A stretch of 64,000 nt of DNA, from positions 1,344,001 to 1,408,000 of the forward strand of contig CAWFQK010000004.1 of assembly GCA_963817955.1 (NCBI GenBank). The letters are read 5' to 3'. Under the pieces are notes generated by a model, which saw nothing but the letters and a program-made list of their open reading frames with translations, searched no databases and was not told the DNA's origin. The translations under genes and the position numbers were made by a program. Numbering within the stretch: the stretch's first letter is position 1; every line of letters begins with the position of its first letter. This document shows positions 4,098 through 64,000 of this stretch, piece by piece. The stretch comes from an uncultured Gemmatimonadaceae bacterium. Lineage in GTDB: Bacteria; Gemmatimonadota; Gemmatimonadetes; Gemmatimonadales; Gemmatimonadaceae.

Positions 4098-4709
4098 ACA
4101 GACTGTTGAAATACGAGTGAATCGCCAGCAATCGGTTACGCGGCTGCGAAGATCGTGATCTGAGCGACGCCTGTCATCCTGAGCGACGCCTGTCATCCTG
4201 AGCGACGGCCTGTCATCCTGAGCGACGGCCTGTCATCCTGAGCGACGGCCTGTCATCCTGAGCGACGGGCTGTCATCCTGAGCGAAAGCGAAGGATCTCT
4301 GTGACCGATAGACCAGCTTTTGAACGCAGAGGACGCAGAGAACTGCAGGAGGTCGCAGAGAACTGCAAGAGAACTGCAGAGAACCGTGAAGGATTGTCTC
4401 GCCTGGGCGTCTTGGCTGATGCCGTCGTGAGGCTCCGATGGTATCGCCCAGATCGGGATCATCAACGATATGGGCGGAATGATTGTGGACTCGGCAATCA
4501 GGTTCATTCCACCAATACGCCCTTCCCCCTTCCGCACGCTTCCAGTTCTCTTTTGCAGTTCTCTGTTGCAGTTCTCTGTTGCAGTTCTCTGCAGTTCTCT
4601 TGCAGTTCTCTGCGTCCTCTGCGTTCAAAAGCTGTTGCGCCGTTTGCGTTAAAAGACCGTCCGGCCCTCGAAGTGATCTGACTCCTGTTCAGCTATTTCA
4701 ACAGTCTGT
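4098..4709. mobile_element. Composite MITE-like element, copy 1
   Basis: Perfect terminal IR ACAGACTGTTGAAATA/TATTTCAACAGTCTGT. Contains 6 tandem TGTCATCCTGAGCG units ending in GCGAAGGATCT and inner inverted AACGCAGAGGACGCAGAGAACTGCA arms. Homologous to 8738-9291 and 30796-31362. Confidence 0.8.
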
Positions 4710-4824
4710 TAACGCTCGGAGTCCAATCCACGCTGTACCGACCAGCGATCGTGGCTTGCGAGCCAGGGCCACCCGCGCGACTACCCTGCACGATTGATGA
4801 GATTTACTCCGCGTTCCTCCACCG

Positions 4825-8738: not shown

Positions 8739-9291
8739 CAGACTGTTGAACTACGAGTGAATCGCCAGCAATCGGTTACGCGGCTGCGAAGATCGTGATC
8801 TGAGCGACGCCTGTCATCCTGAGCGACGGCCTGTCATCCTGAGCGACGGCCTGTCATCCTGAGCGAAAGCGAAGGATCTCTGTGACCGATAGACCAGCTT
8901 TTTAACGCAGAGGACGCAGAGAACTGCAGGAGGACGCAGAGAACTGCAGGAGGTCGCAGAGAACTGCAAGAGAACTGCAGAGAACTGCAAAAAGAGAACT
9001 GTAAGCGTACGGAAGAGGGAAGCGCGTATAGGTGGAATGAACCGTGATTGCCGAGTCCACAATCATTCCGCCTATGTCGTTAATGATCACGACCTGGGCG
9101 ATACCATCGGAGCATCACGACGGCATCATCCAAGATATCGGGATAAGATCTACTCGGTGTTCCTCTGCGGTTCTCTGCGTTCTCTTCAGTTCTCTGCGTC
9201 CTCTGCGTTGAAAAAAAGCCCTCCAACCCTCGAATTGATGCGCACGCCCTCGAGCTTCTGACTCGTGTCCAGCACTATTTCAAAAGTCTGT
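8738..9291. mobile_element. Composite MITE-like element, copy 2 (core inverted)
   Basis: Ends ACAGACTGTTGAACTA/TATTTCAAAAGTCTGT; 3 TGTCATCCTGAGCG units; core is the reverse complement of the copy 1 core. Confidence 0.78.
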
Positions 9292-12995: not shown

Positions 12996-13052
12996 GCGGT
13001 CAGAATCTGTTGCCGCGGACGGCGGACAAGCTGTTTCCCGCAGACGGTGCAA

Positions 13053-13306
13053 CAGCTTTTGAACGCAGAGGACGCAGAGAACTACAAGAGGTCGCAGAGA
13101 ACTGCAAGAGAACTGCAAGAGAACTGCAGAGGAACACCGCGTAGTCGCATCCGGATGTCTTGGATGATGCCGTCGTGACGCTCGGAGTCGCGAAACTGGG
13201 GGATGGGATTATCCGAATGGTGAATCGCCTCCAGTGTTCCCCCCTTCAGTTCTCTTTGCAGTTCTCTGCAGTTCTCTTGCAGTTCTCTGCGACCTCTGCG
13301 TTAAAA
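13053..13306. repeat. Stand-alone inner module of the composite repeat (inverted GCAGAGAACT arms plus diverged core)
   Basis: CAGCTTTTGAACGCAGAGGACGCAGAGAACT ... AGTTCTCTGCGACCTCTGCGTTAAAA; core shares TTGGATGATGCCGTCGTGA. Confidence 0.75.
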
Positions 13307-13459
13307 AAACAAGCCGTCCCGCCCCCGACCCCCTGCAATGCGGTAAACAAACAAGCCGAGACGCCCGAGATCACCCACACCGACCCCCCATAAACAACAA
13401 ATCCGGGCTCGACTCGAGCCCGGATCACCAACGTTCATTCCACGGTCGTGGATCGCTCG

Positions 13460-29438: not shown

Positions 29439-29551
29439 TCATGGCAGCCGGCCTCGGCAAGGCAGCCACAGCCGTGGGCCCACGAGTTTCGGTGGTGGCG
29501 TTGGCGGTCGAACGGTCCCAGCGGCCAGACTCTATCGCGGATATTCCCGAC

Positions 29552-30565
29552 ATGTCCCAGCCGCCACTCATTCCGCTTGCGCATCTCACGGCCCTCCCCG
29601 ATCCGGAGCGCCGGTTCCGGTTGATGGAAATCGTGCGGCGGCGGTTGCGCGAACGTCGATACAGTCGCCGGACTGAGGAAGCCTACGTCCATTGGATCCG
29701 TCGATACATCATCTATAACGAGAGGCGCCATCCGCGGGATCTCGGGGAAACGGAGGTTCGACGCTTTCTCTCTTCTCTCGCGACCGAGGAGCGTGTCGCG
29801 GCATCCACGCAGAACCAGGCTCTTTCGGCCGTGACGTTTCTGTACGACCGCGTGCTCGAGCGACCGCTGACGCGCATCGAGGGCATTCAGCCGGCGCGGC
29901 GATCCCGGCATGTGCCCGTCGTGATGAGCGTGGCCGAGGTCCGCGCGATCCTGACGAAGCTCGAGACTCCGGTGCGACTCTGCGCCGCTATCATGTATGG
30001 AAGCGGCCTCCGGCTCATGGAGTGCATGACGCTGCGGGTCAAGGATGTGGACCTCGATCGTCGAGAGATCGTCGTGCGGGATGGGAAAGGTGGCAAGGAT
30101 CGCCGCACGCCGCTGGCGGAACGCTGCGTGGCACCGCTCATCCGGCTATTGGCCGCGGAGCAGGATTGCTTTCGACGCGACACCCGCGCTGGGGTGCGCA
30201 CCACCGACCTGCCGGCTGCGGTCTCGAGAAAGTATCCGAACGCCGAGGCGGAGTATCGGTGGCGGTATCTCTTTGCCGCTTCCCGTACCTTCACCGACGC
30301 CAACGGCGTCCGCCGGCGTCATCACCTGCACGAAAGCGCCGTGCAGCGTGCGTTCAAGAACGCAGTGACTGCGGCGGGGATCACCAAGCGCGCGACCTGT
30401 CATTCGCTTCGTCATTCCTTCGCCACCCACCTGCTCGAATCCGGCGCTGACATCCGGACAGTGCAGGAGTTGCTTGGCCACAGCGATCTGCGCACGACGA
30501 TGATCTACACGCCTGTCCTCAATCGCGGCGGCTTGGGCGTACGCAGTCCGGCGGATGCGCTGTAG
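29552..30565 (+). CDS. intI: Integron integrase
   Basis: [33 protein letters not shown], the IntI-specific insert KYPNA....W.YLF...[32 protein letters not shown]. Confidence 0.96.
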
Positions 30566-30797: not shown

Positions 30798-31362
30798 CGA
30801 CTGTTGGAATACGAGTGAATCGCCAGCAATCGGTTACGCGGCTGCGACGATCGTGATCTGAGCGACGCCTGTCATCCTGAGCGACGGCCTGTCATCCTGA
30901 GCGAAAGCGAAGGATCTCTGTGACCGATAGACCAGCTTTTTAACGCAGCGGACGCAGAGAACTGCAGGAGGTCGCAGAGAACTGCAAGAGAACTGCAGAG
31001 AACCGTGAAGGATTGTCTCGCCTGGAAGGCTTGGATGATGCCGTCGTGAGGCTCCGATGGTATCGCTCAGGTCGGGATCATCAACGATATGGGCGGAATG
31101 ATTGTGGACTCGGCAAGCACGGTTCATTCCACCGATACGCGCTTCCCTCTTCCGTACGCTTCCAGTTCTCTCTTACAGTTCTCTGCAGCATTCTTTTGCA
31201 GTTCTCTTTTGCAGTTTTCTGTTGCAGTTCTCTGCAGTTCTCTGCAGTTCTCTTGCAGTTCTCTGCGTCCTCTGCGTTCAAAAGCTGTTGCGCCGTTTGC
31301 GTTTAAAGGCCGTCCGGCCCTCGAAGTGATCGGACTCCTGTTCAGCTATTTCAACAGTCTGT
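30796..31362. mobile_element. Composite MITE-like element, copy 3, at the attI/first-cassette junction
   Basis: Ends GCCGACTGTTGGAATA/TATTTCAACAGTCTGT; 2 TGTCATCCTGAGCG units; right end runs into GTTAGGC at 31361. Confidence 0.8.
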
Positions 31363-31388
31363 TAGGCGCACCATCGAGCACCTCTATC

Positions 31389-34017: not shown

Positions 34018-34049
34018 GTATAACGAACGCTGAAGCTGCGGCGTTAAGC
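34018..34049 (+). other. Collapsed 32-bp attC
   Basis: GTATAAC-GAACGCTGAAGCTGCGGC-GTTAAGC; central stem missing. Confidence 0.75.
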
Positions 34050-34662: not shown

Positions 34663-35092
34663 TCATGGACATCTAAGCATGCGCTCCGTATCCGTCGCTG
34701 CTGTCGCGCTGGCGCTCCTCGGTTCGGCGGCGTGGAGACCTTCGCGCCGGAGCAGCGCGCCCAGCTCATTCTCGCTCAAGCCGCGCGCTTCGGTCACCAC
34801 GCGGAGCTTCTCCGCGCCCGTCCACCGCTTCTTCTTCTTCTTCGAGGAACCCATGCCCTCGACGTTACGCGCTTCCCGCAGCCATCGCGAGAGAGAGGCT
34901 GACCGACACCGACCTCGTGCGCGAGGGCGTTGGCACTCATCGCCGACGGCCCGATCAAGCGACGCAGCATTCGGTCCTTGAACGCCGGACTGTATTGCGG
35001 CATGACACTACCCACCTTTGACCCCCGAGGATGCTCTACGTTTGACCGCTTAAGCTACTGCGGTCGTACGACAACTATCCTGACACCGGGGG
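34663..35092 (-). pseudogene. IS3-like transposase orfA remnant with one IS end
   Basis: MPQYSPAFKDRMLRRL.GP...SA.ALA.EVGV, then frameshifted W...EKLRVV.EA..L...ELGALLRREGLH; end CCCCCCGGTGTCAGGATAG. Confidence 0.65.
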
Positions 35093-36248
35093 GTCCGGGA
35101 TCGCGGACGTTAGGTCGCTTGCACCGTCAGTTGCCTTGGATCGTAGCGTTCTCCTCGTTTCCACAGTCGTAACGTGATCGCCGCGAGCTTCCGCGCGAGC
35201 GTCACCCGCGCCAGTTCCTCTCGCATGCCGCGGCTGACCAATCCCTGATACCACTCCCGCAACGCGGCCGTGGCGGCACCTTTGAACACATCCTTCACCA
35301 CGCGGGAGCTAATGTCGAAAGGTGTGGAAATAGACGGAAGGCGGTGACACCTTCTCGGGTGAGCCAATCACCCCCGGGAGAATCCCGGCAACGAAAAGGA
35401 GCCACCGCCCATGAAGAAGATGAAGGATGAGCCAGCCACGTCAAGCGCGACGTGGGACACATTGGAATCCTTTGCCCGGATGCATGTCCAAGGATTCATT
35501 CAGCAGCTGTTGGAAGAAGAGGTGACCGAGCTGCTCGGTCGAGCGAAGTCCGCGCGCCGTGGCGCGGTGGATGCGCCGGCCGGGGCGCGCAACGGGCACG
35601 GGAAGCCGCGGACCCTCGCGCTCATGAATGGGACCATCGTGGTGCGCCGGCCACGGGTGCGCGACCTGGATGAGCTGTTCGTGAGCCGCCTGCTGCCGCT
35701 CTTTCAGCGGCGCACCAAGGAACTGAGCACGCTGTTGCCCGAGCTGTATTTGCATGGCCTCGCGCTCGGGGATTTCGAACTCGCGCTCCGCGGCCTGTTG
35801 GGCGACGGGGCGCCGCTGAGTGCGAGCTCGCTTGTGCGCCTCAAGGCGACGTGGCAGGCGGAGTATGCGGTGTGGCAGCGGCGCGACCTGAGCGCCCTCA
35901 AGCTGGTGTATCTCTGGGCGGACGGCGTGTATGTGAAAGCGGGGCTTGAGCATAGCAAGGCGGCGCTCCTGGTGTTGATCGGCGCCGACGCGGAGGGGCG
36001 GAAACACGTCCTCGCGGTGACCAGTGGCGAGCGGGAATCGGTGGTGAGCTGGACCGCCGTGCTCCGCGACCTGAAGGCGCGCGGGCTCTGCGCCCCCAAG
36101 CTCACGACCCCGGCGGCCACCCAAACTCCCCCACCTGTGGCCACCTCAAAATCCCCCACCCGCTGATGGGTAGCGGCGCCTAATCCGAGGCGCCGAAACG
36201 GCAGGACGTACACTCCTCCTCGACTCTTTTTCGGGGAGTAACCACGGA

Positions 36249-37841
36249 GTGAACGTCTTGAAACCGCATCGACGCATCATGGTCGAGACGCTGCTGGCCA
36301 GCGGCGCGACGCACCGAGAGATCGAACGACGCACGGGCGTGGATCGAAAGACGATCCGCCGGTACGCGCGGGGCCCGGCCCCCAATGCGTCAAACTCCCC
36401 CACCCCGGCCACCGGCTTTGACGAGGCGGTTGCGCAAACTCCTCCACCCCGGCCACCGGCTTTGGCGGAGCGAGACGTCGTCGCGCAGGCGACGGTCACG
36501 GCGCCGACGCCCCGATGGACGCCCTCCGCGTGCGAGCCCCATCGCGCGTGGCTCGAGACCCAAGTCCAACTCGGGCGCAACGCCGTGAGTCTCTACCAGG
36601 AGCTCGTGGACGAGCACGGGTTCACGCATCACTACAACTCCGTCAAACGGTTCGTTGCCACGCTGCGACGGCGCGAACCGGAGCGATTCGATGTCTTGGC
36701 GTACCTGCCCGGCGAGGAGGCCCAAGTCGACTACGGCCAAGGGGCGTTGACGCTGTGGAAGCCCGATCACTACAAGCGACCGTACCTGTTCGTGATGACG
36801 CTCAAGTATTCCGGGAAGAGCTTTCGCAAGGTCGTCTGGAAGACGAATCAAGAGATATGGGCGCGGTTACACGAGGAGGCCTTCCGCACGTTTGGCGGCT
36901 GCCCAGCGTACGTGGTATTAGACAACTTAAAAGAGGGCGTACTCCGACCCGACCTCTACGAGCCCGAGCTGAACCCGGTGTACGCGGCGATGCTCGCCCA
37001 CTATGGCGTCGTGGCGGATCCGTGCCGCGTGCGGGATCCCAATCGCAAAGGGACCGTCGAAAGCGCGATCCAGCACACCCAAGGCACGGCCCTCAAAGGG
37101 AAACGGTTCGCGGCGATCGACGCGCAGAACGTGTATCTCGCGACGTGGGAAGAGCGCTGGGCCGCGACGCGCATCCACGGCCGCAAGAAGCGGCAAGTGC
37201 TCGAGATGTATCGCGAGGAGCAGCCGCACCTTCGCGCGCTCCCGGCCATGCCCATGCAGTACTTCACGCAAGGCACCCGCACTGTCGACGATAGTGGGCT
37301 CGTGCAAGTCAGCGCGTCGTACTACTCGGCGTTACCGGCCGCGCCGACGAGCACGGTCACCGTCCGCCTCTACGCGCGCGAGATCGAGATCCTCGATGCC
37401 GCCGGCCAACTGCTCCGCCGACACGAGATCGCCCCGCGCAAGGGGACCTTCACGATGGACGAGACGGATCGGCTCTTCAATCCCTCGCGCGAGACGGCTC
37501 GCTTGCTGAACAAAGCCGCGCGGATCGGTCCCCACACCGCCGCCTTCGCGCAGCATCTCTTTGCCCATCTCGGCCGGCCGGGCCAACGCGCGCTGTACGG
37601 CCTGACCAATCTCGTCCGCACCTACTCGTGCGCCAACATCGACGCCGTCTGTGCGCGCCTGGTTGCGGCCGAGTGTGTCACCTATGCCGCCGTGAAGCGC
37701 GCCCTGGAACGCACGTGCGCCCCGGACGCGTCGCCCACCCGGCCCATGCTGACGCAGACCGGCCCGGCGATCCGCGCCATCGCTGAGTACCAGGACTTCT
37801 GGGATACGCATTCACACACTCTCCTGCCGGAGCCCCGCTGA
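36249..37841 (+). CDS. istA: IS21 transposase IstA
   Basis: PGEEAQVDYG, VVLDNLK, P.RKGTVE DDE motifs. Confidence 0.93.
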   Translation: MNVLKPHRRIMVETLLASGATHREIERRTGVDRKTIRRYARGPAPNASNSPTPATGFDEAVAQTPPPRPPALAERDVVAQATVTAPTPRWTPSACEPHRAWLETQVQLGRNAVSLYQELVDEHGFTHHYNSVKRFVATLRRREPERFDVLAYLPGEEAQVDYGQGALTLWKPDHYKRPYLFVMTLKYSGKSFRKVVWKTNQEIWARLHEEAFRTFGGCPAYVVLDNLKEGVLRPDLYEPELNPVYAAMLAHYGVVADPCRVRDPNRKGTVESAIQHTQGTALKGKRFAAIDAQNVYLATWEERWAATRIHGRKKRQVLEMYREEQPHLRALPAMPMQYFTQGTRTVDDSGLVQVSASYYSALPAAPTSTVTVRLYAREIEILDAAGQLLRRHEIAPRKGTFTMDETDRLFNPSRETARLLNKAARIGPHTAAFAQHLFAHLGRPGQRALYGLTNLVRTYSCANIDAVCARLVAAECVTYAAVKRALERTCAPDASPTRPMLTQTGPAIRAIAEYQDFWDTHSHTLLPEPR

Positions 37842-38608
37842 TGCCGATGTCCATCCCCGAGCTTGAACGCGCCCTCACCAATCTCCGCCTCTCCGGCATG
37901 ACGGCCACGCTGGAAGCCCGCGCGCTGCAAGTGGCCAGTCACGAGATGGGCTTTCTTGAGGCCTTCTCCTGGCTCGTGCAAGATGAACTCGACCGTCGTC
38001 GCTCCCGGCTGCTCGATCGGCGCCACACCCTCTCGGGACTCCCCGACCGCAAGGACCTCACGAGCTTCGACTGGACCTACAATCCGCGCCTCCCGAAACG
38101 CGACGTCCTCGACCTCGCGACGCTCAAGTTTCTTGACGCCAAGGAAGACGTGCTCGTCCTCGGTCCGCCCGGCACCGGCAAAAGTCACGTCGCCAAAGCG
38201 CTTGCCACCACCGCCGTTAGTCGAGGCTACAAGGTGCTCTATCGCGAAGCGCATCAGCTCATCGAAGACATCACCGAGGCGCGCGAGCTGGGAGAGATTC
38301 GGAAACTGCGTGCCCAGATCGCCGCCGCAGACCTACTCCTGGTCGACGATCTCTTTCTGCGCAAGCTCCCGACGACGGCCGGTGACGAACTCGCCGACGT
38401 CCTCATGGCTCGCCACGAAAAAGCGTCCACGATGATCACGTCCAACCGACCACTCGAGGACTGGACGCGACTCCTCGGGGATGTCGTCGTCGTCACCCCG
38501 CTCCTCGACCGCCTGATGCACCATGGCCATTTGCTCAAGTTTGATGGCAAGAGCTGGCGGCTGAAAGAGGCTGCCGCTCGGGCAGCCAAACAGAAGGCAG
38601 CGAACTAA
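37841..38608 (+). CDS. istB: IS21 helper ATPase IstB
   Basis: GPPGTGKSH, LLLVDD, ITSN, LLDRL.HH, G.SWR. Confidence 0.93.
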   Translation: MPMSIPELERALTNLRLSGMTATLEARALQVASHEMGFLEAFSWLVQDELDRRRSRLLDRRHTLSGLPDRKDLTSFDWTYNPRLPKRDVLDLATLKFLDAKEDVLVLGPPGTGKSHVAKALATTAVSRGYKVLYREAHQLIEDITEARELGEIRKLRAQIAAADLLLVDDLFLRKLPTTAGDELADVLMARHEKASTMITSNRPLEDWTRLLGDVVVVTPLLDRLMHHGHLLKFDGKSWRLKEAAARAAKQKAAN

Positions 38609-40265
38609 CTTCCCCTCGTCCTGCCGGCCATCAAGTGGAGGAGTTTGACCCGGCCACAGGTGGGGGAGTTTGAGGTGGCCACCGGGGCTCACGATCGCCG
38701 ATGGGCATCTCGGCCTCTGGGGCGCTCTCGCGGCAATCTATCCGACGAGTGCCGAGCAGCGGTGTTGGAATCACAAGCTGCGGAACGTGCTCGACCTGGT
38801 GCCGACGAAACGCCAAGCCGAAGTCACCGTGCAGCTCCAGCAGATCGCCGCGGCGGAGACACAGCGGGCGGCGGAGCGGCTGCGCGACGCGTTTGCCCGC
38901 ACGTACCGTCGCGTGGTGCCCAAAGCCGTCGAGTGCCTCGAGCGGGATTGGGACCGCCTGGTCGCGTACTACGCCTTTCCGCAGGAGCACTGGAAGCATC
39001 TGCGCACGACGAACGTGATCGAGTCTCCGTTTGCCGCGGTGCGGCTCCGCACGACCGCGGCGAAGCGCTTCAAGAAAGTGGAGAACGCCACGACGTTGAT
39101 CTGGAAGACCTTACTCGTCGTCGAACAACATTTCCGCAAACTGAACGCCCCGCACCGCTGCACCGACGTGTACGATGGCGCCGTATTTCACGACGGAATC
39201 TGCACCGTGACCCCGACCCGGGAACGGATCGCCGCCTGACGCCTATTTACACACCAATTGACAAGAGCTCTCACCCGGTTGTGATTGCGATTGAGGCCAC
39301 GCGTCTGCACATACCGCCGCCGGCGGCGCACCGGCCGCTGACCGTCGAGCTCGTACTCGGCACTGGTCCGGGTGACGACCGCGAGGCCCGCGTAGGCCCA
39401 GAGGTGGCGCTTCGTGCGGAAGCGCCAGGGCGTCTGCAGCGTCGCGAGGAGGAGCGCGACCCGCACCGGTCCGAGATACGGAATGCTGCGCAGCCCGGCC
39501 CACGCCGGATCTCGTTTCGCTTCCGCGAGCATCGCCGCCTTCGCCTTGGGGCGTAGCTGCTGCAGGACCGCGAGTTCGTCGTACAATGTCGCGGCCCGGA
39601 ACCGCACGCCCCGCTCCGCCAACTGCTGCAGCCACGTCCGGCGCCGAGCTGTTTGATAGACGGCGGTGCCGGGCGTCTTGATGCCGCGCGCCCGAAACAA
39701 CGCCTTGAGCCGTTGCATCACGCGCGTCGAGTCCTCGACGAGATTGGCATAGGTCCGCGCCAGCTCTTTGAGCGTGGCCCGATCGGCACTGCCATGATAG
39801 ACAGCCCGGAGCCGCCCAGAGCGCAGCAATTCCGACAACTCGTCGGCATCCGGCTGATCGCCCTTGTTGCCTTGCGGGGCTTGTCCGCGCCGGTTGCACA
39901 CGAGGACCCGGTCCACCACGGGCACGAGCAGATCGTGCAGCCACTGCGCCTGCGTGCCTTCCTCAAACGCGACGTGGACGGAGCCACGCATGCCGCGGAA
40001 CCAGTCCACGATCGGCGCGGCCTCCGTTGGCAAAATGGTCCGCGCGATCACGCGTCCCGTCTCCTCTCGCACCGTCGTCCCCGTAGTTGCCTGGTGCACA
40101 TCGAGCCCGACATACTTCAGCGTCCGTTTCATGAGAGCGCCTCCTGGCTGGGAGCTGTGGTTGCTCAACAACTCCACATGACCCGTCAGGGGCGCGCGCT
40201 CAATATCCGTTAGCTCGCCACCTAGTAACGCTTTACGTTATGGGCGGCCAGCGTTATTATTGCAG

Positions 40266-46328: not shown

Positions 46329-46359
46329 GTCTCAGGCCGCTCCGCCCGCGCCGTATAAC

Positions 46360-47025
46360 GAGGATGTAGGAAAACCCTAATTGGCTGGCGAGCCGACCGC
46401 GCCGCGTCGTCGATGCGCGGCGGCGGAACTGGTCAGGCGTGTGGCGGCGGAATGCCGGTGACGACCGTGTTTCGGCGCGTTGTACCCCTCGGAACGGTGC
46501 CCCGCACCTACGCCGCGTACCCGTAGTGTGCGAGTTTCTCGATGTTGTGCACGAGACAGAACAGCTTCCATTGCGTCTCGACTTTGCGGCGGCCGCGCAG
46601 GGTGAAGCGATCGAGCCCTTTGTTGTAGCACAGTTTGCCGAACACCGGTTCCACGGCGCCGATGCGTTCCGCATACCGCCGCCGCCCCTCCGGCGAATCA
46701 ATGCGCCGTTTCATGCGGGCGGTGTGCGACTCGGGCAGCGGGGCCGTCTTGCCCTGGAAGAACATGACGGAGCGCACCTTCGTGGTCGACGGCGTCTCGA
46801 GACACCGGGCGCGCAGGACGCACGGGCCACAGTCGCGTTGCTTCCCCTGAAAGCGCGTCCAGATGTTGTCGCGATTCACCCACTGGGCGCCGCTCCGGTT
46901 GAGCACCTTGCCCGCCGGGCAGATGCACGTCCGCGCCTCGGCGTCGTACGTGCAGGCACTCGCCGGAAACACGGCGGCTGCCTGCACCGGAGCAGGATCC
47001 GCCTTGTCGTGCAGCGGATTGTGGA
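46360..47025 (-). mobile_element. IS1182-family element, truncated copy (3' part only)
   Basis: IR GAGGATGTAGGAAAA directly after attC R'' GTATAAC; C-terminal CPAG, C..C.LR..C, VEPVFG, RF.LRG, HNI.KL. Confidence 0.85.
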
Positions 47026-48174: not shown

Positions 48175-48182
48175 CAGCTAAC

Positions 48183-49802
48183 GAGGATGTAGGAAAACCC
48201 TAATTGGCTGGCGAGCCGACCGCGCCGCGTCGTCGATGCGCGGCGGCGGCGGAACTGGTCTGGCGTGCGGCGGCGGAATGCCGGTGACGACCGTGTTTCG
48301 GCGCGTTGTACCCCTCGGAACGGTGCCCCGCACCGACGCCGCGTACCCGTAGTGTGCGAGTTTCTCGATGTTGTGCACGAGACAGAACAGCTTCCACTGC
48401 GTCTCGACTTTGCGGCGGCCGCGCAGGGTGAAGCGATCGAGCCCTTTGTTGTGGCATATATTGCCGAACACCGGTTCCACGGCGCCGAAGCGTTTCGCAT
48501 ACCGCCGCCGCCCCTCCGGCGAATCAATGCGCCGTTTCATGCGGGCGGTGTGCGACTCGGGCAGCGGGGCCGTCTTGCCCTGGAAGAACATGACGGAGCG
48601 CACCTTCGTGGTCGACGGCGTCTCGAGACACCGGGCGCGCAGGACGCACGGGCCACAGTCGCGTTGCTTCCCCTGAAAGCGCGTCCAGATGTTGTCGCGA
48701 TTCACCCACTGGGCGCCGCTCCGGTTGAGCACCTTGCCCGCCGGGCAGATGCACGTCCGCGCCTCGGCGTCGTACGTGCAGGCACTCGCCGGAAACACGG
48801 CGGCTGCCTACACCGGAGCAGGATTCGCCTTGTCGTGCAGCGGATTGTGGAAGGCTTTGTGGTGATCCTGCGTGGCGAAGCGCTCATCTCGGCGGCGCAT
48901 GTCGTTGTCCGCGATGAGCGCGTCGACCGACATCGCGGCGAGTTGCTGCACGTTCGCGTCGCTGTGGTAGCCTGCATCGGCCGTGATCAATGACTCCGCC
49001 GTGAGCAGTCCTTGCATTGCCGCGACGAAGGGATTCTGCTGGAGCCACTCCCGGACCTGCGCCGCATCGTTCTCCAGGCGCTCGACGCGTTGCTTCTCCT
49101 TCTCCAGCAGCGTCGGCTCCGCCGACAGCTGATCCGCTGCGCGATGGCGCGCGAGGATCGTCTGCGCGGCAGCTTCGAGCTTCGTCGCCTGTCGCTCGAA
49201 GTCGGCGCGCGTCCCGCTCCGTCGCTTCGCCGCGTTGCTGGGGAACTTCACCCCATCGATGGCGAACAGCTCGCGACCGATCAGTCCCTCGGCATCGCAG
49301 GTCGCCACCACGGCCGCGAACACGCGAGCGATGTCATCGCCCACCGTGCTCACGAAGTGCGCGATCGTGGTGAAATGCGGGGCCGTGTCGCCTGAGAGCG
49401 ATGAACGTGACCTGCTCGCGACAGGCGCGCTCGATGCCCCGGCTGCTGATGATCCCATGGGCGTAGGCGACGAGCACGACCTTGAGGAGCATCGCCGGTG
49501 GATACGCGGGCGCGCCGGTGTCGTCGTTCTGGAATCGCTCATCGAAGCGTGGGAGGTCGATCGCGTGATCCAGCAGGTGATTGACCGCGTGTTCGAACGT
49601 GCCCGGAAGCAGTTGGCGCGCGAGATCAATGGCCAAGAACTTCGGATTGGTGTCGATGTACTTGTAGCGAGCCATGGCAGGACACCGGAGGAGGGTCAAC
49701 CGCGATGTGCACAGCGCTCCACGCCCGACGCTTCTTCAACCCGCCAGTTGCTTCGCGAGTCACCTCACCACAGACTCTATCGCAGGCTTTTTCTACAGCC
49801 TC
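48183..49802 (-). mobile_element. IS1182-family element with both ends; transposase is a pseudogene
   Basis: IRs GAGGATGTAGGAAAA/TTTTTCTACAGCCTC with 3-bp DR AAC. The ORF from 49675 has a frameshift near 49395, an apparent internal deletion and a TAG at 48808 (CAG in the other copy). Confidence 0.88.
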
Positions 49803-52364: not shown

Positions 52365-52973
52365 ATGTCTCAGCAGCGCTGTTCCCGGTGCGGAGCCGAT
52401 GTCACGACGCGCGAGCTCCCCGGTTTGGGAGTGCGCGAAGTGCTCGTCGATCGTCCTCGTGTGCTCCACCTGTGCACCGGCACCCCCGGATCATCGCGTC
52501 CGGGGGGTAGGTTAGCGCCCGCGTCAGTCGCCCAGCTCGGTGAACCAAAGGGCATCTCCACGCCCGCCAATTCCGATCCCACAGTTCGCAGGCCAGTGGC
52601 AAAGCAGTGCCGGGAGTGTGGCTACCCCATACTCCTGGTCTGGGACAAGACACGTGACTGCTACATGCCCGTGGATCAGGCCACGCGCCAGCCCCATTCT
52701 TGCCGCGCGAGTGATCTAACCAGAAGTGCCGTTGACTGCCCGACATGCGGAGCGCGGGTGAATTCGATGTTTCATCGTGCATCCGGGAAACGTCGCCTCT
52801 TCACCCCGGATGATAGTACGAAGCTGCATCACTGCATCCCGCCCGAGATCGCCGTTCGTCGAAGCGGCGGCGGCAGCCGGTTGGGGTCAGCGGACGGACT
52901 GCAGTCGTATCAGCGTCCTTCCTCCATCGACTGCACGTGTGAGGGCAGCGGTTGCGCCTCGTGCCGCCGATAG
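52365..52973 (+). CDS. Cassette: Cys/His-rich multi-zinc-ribbon hypothetical protein
   Basis: Three CxxCG...HxC units plus C-terminal CxCxxxxCxxC. Confidence 0.6.
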   Translation: MSQQRCSRCGADVTTRELPGLGVREVLVDRPRVLHLCTGTPGSSRPGGRLAPASVAQLGEPKGISTPANSDPTVRRPVAKQCRECGYPILLVWDKTRDCYMPVDQATRQPHSCRASDLTRSAVDCPTCGARVNSMFHRASGKRRLFTPDDSTKLHHCIPPEIAVRRSGGGSRLGSADGLQSYQRPSSIDCTCEGSGCASCRR

Positions 52974-52985
52974 CGTGGCGAGGTG

Positions 52986-53075
52986 GTCTAACGAGCGCTG
53001 AACTTGTCGAGCGATCTATGGAAGCTCGCTGCGCTCGCAGCTTATTGAATTCGCTCGCAAGTTAGCTTTGGCGTT
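52986..53075 (+). other. attC site (R' split by IS110-A)
   Basis: GTCTAAC...CTGAACTTG...CAAGTTAG-CTTTGGCGTT|IS|AGCC. Confidence 0.88.
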
Positions 53076-53229
53076 CTATGAGAGTGATTGTCAAGAGCGC
53101 TCTTCGTGCCGGCTGATCGTTTCACCTTTTTCTTCTTGGCAATCAGCCCCGACTCTTTCCTGGCGCGCGAGACCTTCCGCCGGGCAGTCTGCTTTGGCAT
53201 CGTTGTCCTCCCCGTCACTCCAAGGGTTC

Positions 53230-53470
53230 GATCGGACGTGTGCAAGCGATTGGGTCGCGCGGAGGCGAACCATGGTTCTATCTGAGACTCGGCCGCACGG
53301 GCCGGCCTGTCGCTTATTCGGGTTCTGCGGAAGGGCCTATGGTTAGCCGAGTGCCTCGGCGGGACTGCTTGGCCGGGCGAACGCCCAAGATGAGACTGTC
53401 TTCCGCACCCACGTCCCGAATCCTGGAGCCGAGCGGGGGGCAAACGCCCACCTCACGGCGTCCGGGATCG
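53230..53470 (-). ncRNA. Putative bridge/seek RNA of IS110-A
   Basis: Minus strand carries TTGGGCGTT and GGCTAAC (target flanks), then ATAGAAC (own end junction); boundaries approximate. Confidence 0.65.
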
Positions 53471-53476
53471 CGGACG

Positions 53477-54544
53477 TTAGGTCGCTTGCACCGTCAGTTG
53501 CGTTGGATCGTAGCGTTCTCCTCGTTTCCACAGTCGTAACGTGATCGCCGCGAGCTTGCGCGCGAGCGTCACCCGCGCCAGTTCCTCTCGCATGCCGCGG
53601 CTGAGCAATCCCTGATACCAGTCCCGCAACGCGCCCGGCCGCACGGACGCGGCCGTGGCCGCCCCTTTGAACACATCCTTCACCACGCGGTTGTGATTGC
53701 GATTGAGGCCGCGCGTCTGCACATACCGCCGCCGACGGCGCACCGGCCGCTGACCGTCGAGCTCGTACTCGGCGCTGGTCCGGGTGACGACCGCGAGGCC
53801 CGCGTAGGCCCAGAGGTGGCGCTTCGTGCGGAAGCGCCAGGGCGTCTGCAGCGTCGCGAGGAGGAGCGCGACCCGCACCGGTCCGAGATACGGAATGCTG
53901 CGCAGCCCGGCCCACGCCGGATCTCGTTTCGCTTCCGCGAGCATCGCCGCCTTCGCCTTGGGGCGTAGCTGCTGCAGGACCGCGAGTTCGTCGTACAATG
54001 TCGCGGCCCGGAACCGCACGCCCCGCTCCGCCAACTGCTGCAGCCACGTCCGGCGCCGAGCTGTTTGATAGACGGCGGTGCCGGGCGTCTTGATGCCGCG
54101 CGCCCGAAACAACGCCTTGAGCCGTTGCATCACGCGCGTCGAGTCCTCGACGAGGTTGGTATAGGTCCGCGCCAGCTCCTTGAGGGTCGCGCGATCGCGA
54201 CTGCCATGATAGACGGCCCGGAGCCGCCCGCAGCGCAGCAACTCCGACAACTCGTCGGCATCCGGCTGATCGCCCTTGTTGCCTTGCGGGGCTTGTCCGC
54301 GCCGGTTGCACACGAGGACCCGGTCCACCACGGGCACGAGCAGATCGTGCAGCCACTGCGCCTGCGTGCCTTCCTCAAACGCGACGTGGACGGAGCCACG
54401 CATGCCGCGGAACCAGTCCACGATCGGCGCGGCCTCCGTTGGCAAAATGGTGCGCGCGATCACGCGTCCCGTCTCCTCTCGCACCGTCGTCACCGTAGTT
54501 GCCTGGTGCACATCGAGCCCGACATACTTCAGCGTCCGTTTCAT
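53477..54544 (-). CDS. IS110 DEDD recombinase
   Basis: YVGLDVHQ, VAFEEG, KGDQPDA, WAYAGL...TS, LARKLA; uninterrupted 355 aa. Confidence 0.92.
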   Translation of the reverse strand: MKRTLKYVGLDVHQATTVTTVREETGRVIARTILPTEAAPIVDWFRGMRGSVHVAFEEGTQAQWLHDLLVPVVDRVLVCNRRGQAPQGNKGDQPDADELSELLRCGRLRAVYHGSRDRATLKELARTYTNLVEDSTRVMQRLKALFRARGIKTPGTAVYQTARRRTWLQQLAERGVRFRAATLYDELAVLQQLRPKAKAAMLAEAKRDPAWAGLRSIPYLGPVRVALLLATLQTPWRFRTKRHLWAYAGLAVVTRTSAEYELDGQRPVRRRRRYVQTRGLNRNHNRVVKDVFKGAATAASVRPGALRDWYQGLLSRGMREELARVTLARKLAAITLRLWKRGERYDPTQLTVQAT

Positions 54545-54652
54545 GAGAGCGCCTCCTGGCTGGGAGCTGTGGTTGCTCAACAACTCCACATGACCCGTCA
54601 GGGGCGCGCTCTCAATATCCGTTAGCCTGCAACCCTGCCTCCCAACGGCTCC

Positions 54653-55009
54653 ATGACCACTCGCCTTTCTCTCGTGTTCGCCGTGCTGATCGCCGTAGGT
54701 TGCACCAGCGATTCGGCAGACTCGCATGTCGTTCAAGCCGCGGCCCCCGCCTACTCGGCGGAGCAGCGAGCTTCGACGGAGCTAGTCATGAAAAACGCGC
54801 GGGATATCTGCGCCATCCGCGTCGAAGATCCCCACCTAGTCGTTGAATGCAAAGCTGACATTTCTCACGAGAATCAGCTCGCCTTCGCGCGAGCTATCGC
54901 GGATGCGGATGTCGTCCTCAATGGTTCGCCACGCAACATCTATTTCTACCTTCCTGGCGGAGCACAGTTTGCCCAGGCGGACCCAGTAAACGGGATAAGG
55001 CTGAAGTAG
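54653..55009 (+). CDS. Cassette: hypothetical lipoprotein
   Basis: Lipobox AVGC; bounded by GTTAGCC and GGCTAAC. Confidence 0.7.
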   Translation: MTTRLSLVFAVLIAVGCTSDSADSHVVQAAAPAYSAEQRASTELVMKNARDICAIRVEDPHLVVECKADISHENQLAFARAIADADVVLNGSPRNIYFYLPGGAQFAQADPVNGIRLK

Positions 55010-62650: not shown

Positions 62651-62859
62651 GCATCGTCGAGCCGTTCGGGGCGGCGAACGAGACGGGGCGTGCCGCGACA
62701 AAATCTGCGCTGCGGCGGAGCGTCGCCAAGGTACTGCCTTCACGGTATTTCGTATGGCCTTCATGTGGCCACGGGGACGCTGAAAAAGAGCTGCACCACG
62801 CCGAGCGCCGGATGCGCCGGAGGAAAGAGCGAACAACCGACGTGAGACGTGTCGCGATC

Positions 62860-64000
62860 TCCATCGGAAGCGACGGACTCGTCGTCGGAAGCGACGGAAG
62901 GGTCGTCGGGAGAGACGGAATGGTCGTCGGGAGAGACGGAAGGGTCGTCGGGAGAGACGGAATGGTCGTCAGAACCGACCGAGTCGCCTTCGGAAGAGTT
63001 GGAGTCGCGTTCGGAAGAATCGGAGCCTCGTTCAGACCGGTCGGTGTTTGCGTGAGAAGCGATGGTCTTGCGTGTCACGCGAGGAGTCCGTCCTCGACGC
63101 GAGCGCCTGCGCGCTTCACGATCGGGCGTGGGGCCTGCACAAGAGACGATTCCATCGGCTAGGTCAGCCATCCCTGCTGTTACGTCAGCCATCCCTGCTG
63201 AACGCGAGCGACTGGGTCCTGAACGCCGAGCCATTGCCTGTGGACGCGGACCCATTCCAGGTTGACCAGGATCTATTCCACGTCGACACGGGTCTATTCC
63301 ACGTCAATGCGGGTGAGTCCCTCGTGGCATCGCGCGAGAGAGGCCTCAACGGCCGAGAGTCTGACGTTGACGGCGACGACTCCTCACGTGACGCCCGTCG
63401 ATCCCTCCGGCACGGCGCGCAGTTGGTGGTGAGCACGCGGGCATCCGAGCTGAACGAGCCGGAAAGCCTCCTGGACGACCGCGAGTCCGATGTTGACTGC
63501 GAGGAGTTCGTGCTTGCACGCGAGCCGTTCGTGCTTGACCGCGAGGGGTTCGTGCTTGACCGCGCGCCGTGCCATCTCACCACGGGCGAGTCACCCCTCG
63601 ACACGCGTGGGTTCCCTCTCGACCGGAAGGACTCCGCCCTGACCGAGACGCACTCTCAGGTGGACGTCATGGCATCCCAGCGAACGGAGCGAGGATTGTG
63701 GGTGGACGCGCGGGAGAGGGGTGTTGACGAGAGACGGTCCGATGTGGGGCGAGCGGCATTCGGGCTTGACACCGGGGTGTTCCCTCTTGACCGGAGTGAC
63801 TCCACCCTGAACAGCGGCTGGTGCGAGCTGGACGCGCCGGAGTCCCTGCTCGACCGGCGCTCATTCCGTCTCGACCGCGAGGGATTCCTCCTGCACACGC
63901 GTCAATTCGGTCGAGACAGCGAGGACTTCCACCTTCACACGCGTGAATTCGGTCTCGACCGCGAGGACTTCCACCTGCACACGCGTCAATTCGGTCTCGA
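62860..64000 (+). repeat. 21-bp periodic degenerate repeat region; + frame open from 63072 to the window end
   Basis: Units such as GTCGTCGGGAGAGACGGAAGG and TTCGTGCTTGACCGCGAG; translates as [LV]Dxxx[FS]x heptads. Confidence 0.7.

Follow-up and report, generated by a model that had tools for sequence, protein, structure and literature searches.

The window analyzed here, a stretch of 64,000 nt from an uncultured Gemmatimonadaceae bacterium (GCA_963817955.1, contig CAWFQK010000004.1, positions 1,344,001-1,408,000, forward strand), holds an integron whose cassette array is interrupted by an insertion sequence (IS) of the IS1111 type within the IS110 family. An attC site is interrupted by the element in its 3' (R') core, the transposase gene lying antisense to the cassettes. 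A conserved two-module RNA structure is encoded downstream of this gene, and two segments of the first module change together with the sequences flanking the insertion across about 60 natural copies. On this comparative evidence we consider it very likely that the element is an intact IS1111-type RNA-guided DEDD/serine recombinase, the insertion site being chosen by a guide RNA that the element encodes downstream of its transposase gene.

Organization and boundaries of the element

Relatives were collected in a one-genome-per-species scan that yielded 107 stretches encoding related proteins, of which the best 80 were kept (47-77% protein identity). Most of the hosts of these best 80 belong to Gemmatimonadota; Thermoanaerobaculia and other Acidobacteriota are also represented, together with a few Myxococcota metagenome-assembled genomes. 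Similarity to the window element ends at the same two points in all loci that hold a whole copy. Both ends are present in 54 sources, one of them the window; the flank tests used the 51 copies with 12 nt or more of flank on each side, and 53 distinct sequences entered the RNA alignment.

The element ends are identical across the 54 copies. In element orientation, the left junction has the consensus flank, AC, and then G(G/C)AT(A/G)TTGA(G/A)AGC, and the right junction reads ...CT(C/T)TCATAGA, then AC and the flank. In the window, the right end (...CTCTCATAGA, element orientation) falls at 53075 and the left end (GGATATTGAGAGC...) at 54620; on the forward strand, the left flank ...TTTGGCGTT precedes CTATGAG..., and ...ATATCCGTT precedes AGCCTG on the right. 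The dinucleotide AC is found at both junctions of all 51 copies and the base preceding it varies only at the left junction, so the shared core is a dinucleotide and the element proper spans 53075-54620; the G that comes directly after the core on the left-end side is conserved and belongs to the element itself. A short core at both junctions without an ordinary target duplication, a feature of the IS110 family, is thus found in 51/51 copies. The first-pass annotation of the window had placed an intact IS110 element at 53067-54627. One whole, intact copy is indeed present, although the element proper is shorter. The CGTT noted on both sides is seen in this copy, but the shared core amounts to only 2 nt of it (GT) and the rest is partly coincidental.

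The ends carry a subterminal inverted repeat of about 7-8 bp, TGAGAGC(G), in which TTGA[G/A]AGC on the left pairs with GCT[C/T]TCATAG on the right. Its variable position changes jointly on both arms in 54/54 copies (39 with G/C, 15 with A/T, 0/54 discordant). Subterminal inverted repeats of 7-17 bp characterize the IS1111 group (PMC11208160). The distribution of noncoding DNA, 401 nt downstream of the transposase gene vs 76 nt upstream, corresponds to the IS1111-group layout as well. Between the guide RNA and the right end lies a conserved hairpin (53112-53147), whose arms appear to vary in concert in the 54-sequence alignment.

A conserved two-module RNA

The segment 53415-53259 is the only strongly conserved part of the downstream noncoding region. 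Analysis of the 53 sequences with RNAalifold gave a two-module RNA at 53406-53267 on the minus strand, each module consisting of an outer stem, an internal loop, and an inner hairpin. In the first, target-binding module, the outer stem is 99% paired with compensatory changes in 4/7 pairs, and the inner hairpin is 99% paired with compensatory changes in 6/7. The outer stem of the second, donor-binding module is also 99% paired, and two of its pairs have 18-19 sequences changed on both sides. Over all 33 pairs, standard pairing occurs in 97.1% of the alignment cells, compared with 36-47% when the partners are slid by 1-3 columns, and changes on both sides are seen in 20/33 pairs. None of five structure measures was reached by any of 500 shuffles. 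Kinship among the sequences inflates such shuffle tests, but a clear signal is given by the slid controls and by the many G-C/A-U/U-G swaps found in both outer stems.

A covariance model derived from this alignment (R1) finds one copy in the window and recovers all family loci in which the region is present, among them L084, the most distant relative (48% protein identity). It also has matches in 6/151 sampled genomes of the phylum, own genome included. The first module (53406-53327) is 80 nt long, similar in size to the published seekRNAs of IS1111-type elements, which measure 82-96 nt (PMC11187229).

Target guides and insertion flanks

On the minus strand, the window reads TTGGGCGTT at 53388-53380, GGCTAAC at 53348-53342, and ATAGAAC at 53281-53275, exactly as reported in the first-pass annotation. 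The first two segments occupy the two strands of one internal loop between covarying helices of the first module. One would act as the right-target guide, complementary to the core and the following end of the attC body, and the other as the left-target guide, in the same sense as the left flank and the core (Table 1).

The left guide matches 5/5 flank positions of its own copy in 38 copies, 4/5 in 11, and 2/5 in 2, with a mean of 4.67 for the own flank vs 3.04 for the flanks of other copies. The right guide, scored at the best offset as the reverse complement of the core plus 8 nt, reaches a mean of 7.86/10 for the own flank vs 5.19 for those of other copies. In permutation tests of either guide, 0/10000 permutations reached the observed match. 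Among retargeted copies, defined by a left flank other than CCTA-AC, 17/24 have an RNA that contains the 7-mer of the copy's own flank without mismatch (for example GTTTCAC, GCTTGAC, CGGACAC, GGATGAC, and TCCCTAC), and those with matching guides include sites lacking attC features. Eleven loci outside the 51-copy set behave in the same way, with 10/11 matching at 8/11 or better, L071 being scored at its second right end, and in the distant relative L084 the guide match is 10/10. At least 19 different left guides occur among the ~60 natural copies. Within the window alone, 5000 dinucleotide shuffles of the 401-nt region produced the exact 7-mer in 41 cases, a match of at least 8/9 in 66, and both in none.

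Because so many different guide/flank pairs exist, chance or shared descent is an inadequate explanation of the matches. The proposal of the first-pass annotation that the element carries an attC-programmed bridge or seek RNA is therefore strongly supported by comparison. The two tests that it had named, position of the segments in internal loops and their covariation with the insertion flanks, both came out in its favor. Copies inserted at sites unrelated to GGCGTTAG, which that annotation had named as the finding that would speak against it, do exist, yet there the guides have changed along with the flanks, as would be expected of an RNA guide.

Two further patterns were seen among the relatives. 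In L071 (3981, 4270) and L073 (3990, 4077), the right-end region is tandemly duplicated, and of the two right ends it is the outer one whose flank the right guide fits; a second, partial match to the RNA is also found in L071. Four copies from one genome (L038, L039, L057, and L076) carry the same guides at four sites, each only loosely matching the right guide, and two of them share one right-flank repeat, a pattern that looks like tolerated mismatches or off-target insertion.

Table 1. Features of the IS1111-type element, the interrupted attC site, and the surrounding integron, in window coordinates
Feature	Position	Strand	Remarks
Integron integrase gene, head of the array	29441-30565	plus	TIGR02249, 414 bits vs cut-off 265
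Second copy, 3' end of transposase gene	35090-35305	minus	RNA region missing
Second copy, 5' part	39272-40214	minus	98% identical to 53684-54626; abuts GTTAGCT at the start of the next cassette
Interrupted attC	52986-53074	plus	R'' (GGTCTAAC) at the 5' end; rest of R' (TAGCC) at 54623-54627
Core dinucleotide, right-end junction	53073-53074	minus	AC in element orientation, GT on plus strand; AC in 51/51 copies
Insertion sequence body, 1546 bp	53075-54620	minus	Bounded by the points at which the 80 homologous loci cease to be similar
Subterminal inverted repeat, right-end arm	53079-53084	not assigned	Partner arm 54608-54614
TTGACA, -35 half of predicted junction promoter	53089-53094	minus	Right end; promoter complete only with joined ends
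Conserved hairpin with A-rich loop	53112-53147	minus	GCUGAUnG...CnAUCAGC; between guide RNA and right end
Donor-binding module	53267-53325	minus	Outer stem 53325-53321/53271-53267; inner hairpin 53308-53285
Left-donor guide AUAGAAC	53275-53281	minus	Equals last 5 nt of right end plus core; 3' strand of second loop
Putative right-donor guide CGAAUAAGCGAC	53309-53320	minus	5' strand of second loop; weak assignment, by inference only
Target-binding module	53327-53406	minus	Outer stem 53406-53400/53333-53327; inner hairpin 53378-53353; loop with both target guides
Left-target guide GGCUAAC	53342-53348	minus	Same sense as 5 nt left of core plus core; complement of R' core GTTAGCC
Right-target guide UCUUGGGCGUU	53380-53390	minus	Complements core plus next 8-9 nt in element orientation (end of attC body)
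Transposase/recombinase gene, 355 aa (P0001)	53477-54544	minus	PF01548 DEDD_Tnp_IS110 and PF02371 Transposase_20
GATATT, -10 half of predicted junction promoter	54614-54619	minus	Left end
Core dinucleotide, left-end junction	54621-54622	minus	AC in 51/51 copies

Donor side and circle junction

The segment AUAGAAC of the second loop is invariant in the 53 sequences and matches the invariant right end ...CATAGA plus AC, in agreement with the first-pass annotation, which had assigned it to the element's own end. Neither the segment nor the right end varies, and the segment fits a left-donor guide. The weaker partner proposed alongside it, AATAagCG, fared less well. It lies on the 5' strand of the second loop, the strand of the putative right-donor guide of Table 1, pairs only in part with the core plus left end, and is without comparative support: the G/C difference at left-end position 2 is not followed, and no covariation was visible across donor ends that hardly vary.

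When the two ends are joined, the sequence TTGAC[A/G/C], a 17-nt spacer, and nAT[A/G/T]TT is formed in 53/54 copies; a sigma-70 scan of the integrated element returned 0 promoter-like sites. We infer that the RNA is transcribed and that the protein binds it, that the donor is a circle carrying this junction promoter (TTGACA, 17 nt, GATATT), and that the window copy is active.

Transposase

The 355-residue protein (P0001) matches PF01548, the N-terminal DEDD, RuvC-like domain, at E = 1e-10 (42 bits vs a cut-off of 29), and PF02371 with 38 bits vs a cut-off of 21.3. Among 20 relatives, D11, E57/E58, D92, and D95 are invariant and S257 nearly so; the latter, the conserved Ser of the G..P....SG finger in the C-terminal PF02371 domain, aligns with the Ser of the SG motif (ESG) in IS621. 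The C-terminal motif of the clade reads GLAVVTR(S/T)S(A/S), with Ala or Ser instead of Gly after the Ser; compared with the IS1111 motif GL-P----S(t)G, it is without the Pro and ends in SA. A profile built from the family matches the IS621 transposase (8wt6) at E = 4e-6, whereas a phmmer search with P0001 alone against PDB chains gave no match at E up to 0.01.

Integron context and the interrupted attC site

On the plus strand, attC-like sites recur from ~31.7 to 55.1 kb, each directly after the stop of a plus-strand open reading frame (ORF). The array extends at least 23 kb downstream of the integrase gene, which lies on the same strand as the cassettes, and comprises at least 13 such sites, two of which, at 34021 and 43918, are very short (~32 nt). 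The interrupted attC directly follows the stop of the plus-strand ORF 52365-52973 and resembles the other attC sites of the array. When the element was removed in silico, the rebuilt site formed a 94-nt hairpin with 6/7 R-box pairs (z = -4.6).

The R-box-anchored hairpin test, applied to the rebuilt empty sites, classified 15/48 as attC-like vs 0/44 control stretches; several more were marginal and others clearly not attC-like. Two other procedures had been tried and set aside. A simple test of the partner box plus L-box gave 16/47 sites vs 6/47 controls, and its L-box score failed on the window's own attC; a free-length hairpin search gave 17/48 sites at z < -2 with over-long structures and was replaced by the R-box-anchored test. 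An integron integrase exceeded the cut-off in 4/5 host genomes of relatives tested, as a genome-level result irrespective of the distance to the element. At the attC-like sites of relatives, the longest frame beyond the attC, to its right, lies on the strand opposite to the transposase in 12/15 cases, a noisy measure in GC-rich DNA, and in 9 of them the stop of this frame falls within -15 to +40 nt of the attC end. Antisense insertion thus appears to be the rule at these sites.

Several other repeats occur in the window. One of ~550 bp occurs in four copies in both orientations (4100-4710, 8740-9215, 13030-13335, and 30800-31365), its ends being tandem runs of a ~20-nt unit (GCAGAGAACTGCA-like), and one of its copies occupies the interval from the integrase gene to the first attC, the expected place of attI. 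The segments 46356-46699 and 48179-48525, 1.8 kb apart, are 94-100% identical, which points to a duplication of cassettes within the array. Close to the window's end, 62843-63010 and 63839-63996 hold tandem repeats with units of 21 nt (7 copies) and 42 nt (3 copies).

Other copies in the genome

A second copy of the element lies upstream in the same array (Table 1). Its pieces are 97-98% identical to the first copy, and the whole downstream noncoding region has been lost. The surviving end reads ...ATATCC followed by GTTAGCT at 40209-40215, so that this copy also abuts a cassette core, as the first-pass annotation had noted. It is not intact: ~4 kb of other insertion sequences (35306-39271) with IS256-type and IS21-type proteins are inserted into it. 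The IS256-type transposase gene is itself split (35411-36166 and 38670-39239) by an IS21-type element encoding IstA (36249-37841) and IstB (37841-38608). Elsewhere in the genome only fragments were found, namely a decayed remnant on another contig (L005, ~1500-1790) in three pieces that are 86-97% identical. The right end of this remnant adjoins an attC-like ...TTCGGACGTT junction (...GGACGTT).

Proposed mechanism

The guides of the first loop would together spell the 3' end of attC, that is, the last 8-9 nt of L', the conserved G-TT, and then AGCC, and AUAGAAC of the second loop would recognize the right end plus core in a donor with joined ends. Strands would be exchanged at the AC core, which would leave one core copy per junction without an ordinary target duplication. 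The element would land antisense to the cassettes, exactly in the R' triplet that also serves the integron integrase as crossover site. This integrase crossover takes place between the G and the TT of R', and the IS element and the integrase would therefore use the same few bases.

Several results weigh against RNA-guided insertion into attC. The 51 copies include many kin and are not independent events. In L074 and its duplicate L075 the right guide fails to match the flank, in several of the 51 copies it matches only 5-7/10, and in the window copy it has 2 mismatches to its own flank. Only about one third of the rebuilt sites pass the attC test, which is home-made, so the family is best described as attC-associated and reprogrammable, not attC-exclusive. 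On the donor side, the complementarity of the putative right-donor guide is only partial, and in the window copy it has GA opposite the core where most relatives read GU. The single-sequence fold of 53259-53415 is no better than that of shuffles (z = -0.2) and is uninformative, and an Rfam E-value scan of 52500-55000 found no matching family. In public sequencing runs the stretch is represented only in small part, the share of sampled words not exceeding 0.14. Four metatranscriptome runs from four studies gave short contigs, derived from relatives and 90-95% alike, that cover 53233-53400 without usable ends; this cover is biased, because the runs were chosen with this very stretch and only its conserved part can match relatives, and was not counted as evidence of expression. 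Finally, P0001 scores 117 bits against NF033542, under the curated cut-off of 140. This cut-off is a naming threshold rather than a mechanistic feature, and the missed score shows the divergence of the clade.

Among the alternatives, the one that survives best, though we regard it as very improbable, is that the element is an ordinary member of the described IS1111-attC group (ISPa21, ISPst6, ISKpn4, and ISPa25) with nothing distinctive. The attC target, the antisense orientation, the downstream noncoding layout, and the order of the target segments are all alike (PMC11187229, PMC3001079). However, P0001 shares only 22% identity with the ISKpn4/ISPst6-type transposase, over 167 aa (less than half the length, E = 6e-4), whereas ISKpn4 and ISPa25 are 46% identical and identities within the group range from 46 to 86% (PMC11187229); such a low value argues against membership in this clade. 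The ISKpn4-type protein reaches 294 bits with NF033542 compared with the 117 of P0001, and the best tblastn match of P0001 in 72,556 plasmids is only 27% identical. In a comparison set of 53 metagenome loci, fetched by a 24-nt motif of the ISKpn4/ISPst6 noncoding region, model R1 detected 0/53 at E up to 1. Those loci have the whole attC on the other side, to the left of the element in gene orientation, with the far core GTTAGG 5-7 nt past the right end, whereas here the insertion lies inside the R' core.

Slightly less probable still is that the conserved block acts as DNA, either as transposase-binding sites or as an internal attC-like integrase site, its flank-like segments having been acquired by recombination with targets. 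The first module, read as DNA, does resemble a permuted attC end (...GCGTT, hairpin, GCCTAAC). Against this stand helices with G-C to A-U and G-U changes that preserve pairing on one strand, segments that also track non-attC targets, and the experimentally established RNAs of the IS110 family (PMC11187229; PMC11208160). The least probable alternative, in which the protein alone recognizes the attC core or hairpin and the noncoding matches reflect chance or shared descent, could draw on the uninformative single-sequence fold and on the commonest left flank, GCCTA-AC, which is common to 21/51 copies so that some matching is expected from descent, but it is contradicted by guides and flanks that change jointly in retargeted copies, including sites without attC features, by 0/10000 permutations on either side, and by the occurrence of both window matches in 0/5000 shuffles.

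RNA-guided insertion remains our preferred explanation, and one consequence of it, raised in the first-pass annotation, may be suggested, albeit as a rather unlikely one: the element may hitch-hike on cassette exchange as the first gene of the downstream cassette. By using AC/GT of the R' triplet as its own core, it would leave G-TT at both junctions, and the upstream junction would keep the attC hairpin plus GTT. If the integrase still crosses over at the upstream junction, the element could be excised, shuffled, and transferred together with the downstream cassette; precise self-excision of the element would then restore the attC. In four copies (L049, L055, L064, and L074) the left guide fits and the right guide fails, an asymmetry that is not significant, GCCTAAC being so common. 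These copies are a possible trace of an upstream cassette swapped after insertion.

Comparison with known systems

Insertion of IS1111 elements into attC is not in itself new: attC-targeting members were reportedly described by Tetu and Holmes in 2008 and by Post and Hall in 2009. The concept of an attC-programmed RNA is not new either, since for ISKpn4, ISPst6, and ISPa25 seekRNAs were shown in 2024 both to match attC and to be co-purified with the transposase (Siddiquee et al., PMC11187229). The present element shares with this group a DEDD transposase, a long downstream noncoding region, subterminal inverted repeats, and antisense insertion in attC. The two target-matching segments also follow the same order: in IS1111-type seekRNAs the top-strand complement precedes the bottom-strand complement in the 5' to 3' direction (PMC11187229), as 53390-53380 precedes 53348-53342 on the RNA strand here. 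The systems differ in the position of insertion. Known IS1111-attC elements insert antisense "near the 5'-end" of attC (PMC3001079), a few bases inside its R''/L'' end, whereas the present element uses the conserved triplet of R' at the 3' end, with the attC body to its right. They differ in their hosts as well, which are clinical class 1 integrons for the IS1111-attC group and environmental Gemmatimonadota, Acidobacteriota, and Myxococcota genomes for this lineage. In literature searches on bridge RNA with attC, on IS1111-attC elements, on seekRNA, and on IS110 with integrons and Gemmatimonadota, no description of this lineage came up.

The bridge recombinases IS621 and ISCro4 (Durrant et al., 2024, PMC11208160; PDB 8wt6, 9t56) provide a second point of reference. 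Common to both systems are a two-loop RNA with a 2-nt core in every guide, a circle-junction promoter, which is predicted here, and a DEDD domain combined with a Ser-bearing C-terminal domain. In the bridge recombinases the two strands of a loop each pair with a single strand of a half-site (PMC11208160), an arrangement predicted here as well. In contrast, the present element encodes its RNA downstream of the gene, with the guides in reversed order and AC rather than CT as the core; the similarity to IS621 is seen only by the family profile, not by the single P0001 sequence. Group IIC-attC introns are likewise mobile elements that enter attC antisense to cassette transcription by RNA-DNA pairing, but these introns are retroelements that possess a ribozyme and a reverse transcriptase, and they insert near the 5' end of attC (PMC3001079).

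RNA-guided targeting of attC has so far been described for one clade, mainly in clinical class 1 integrons. The element analyzed here would represent a second lineage, very distant from the first, that occurs in environmental phyla and in large chromosomal integrons and would reach attC at the other end, at the integrase crossover. Its ~60 natural copies form a ready series of guide/target pairs that documents natural reprogramming in the IS1111 type, and the clade offers bridge-recombinase orthologues remote from both IS621 and ISKpn4. The finding also bears on the effects of IS1111-group insertions on integron function, for which "limited experimental evidence" was noted in 2024 (PMC11616780). 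Taken together, the element appears to work like the IS1111-attC group, yet stands outside it by pairwise identity, by RNA model, and by insertion position.

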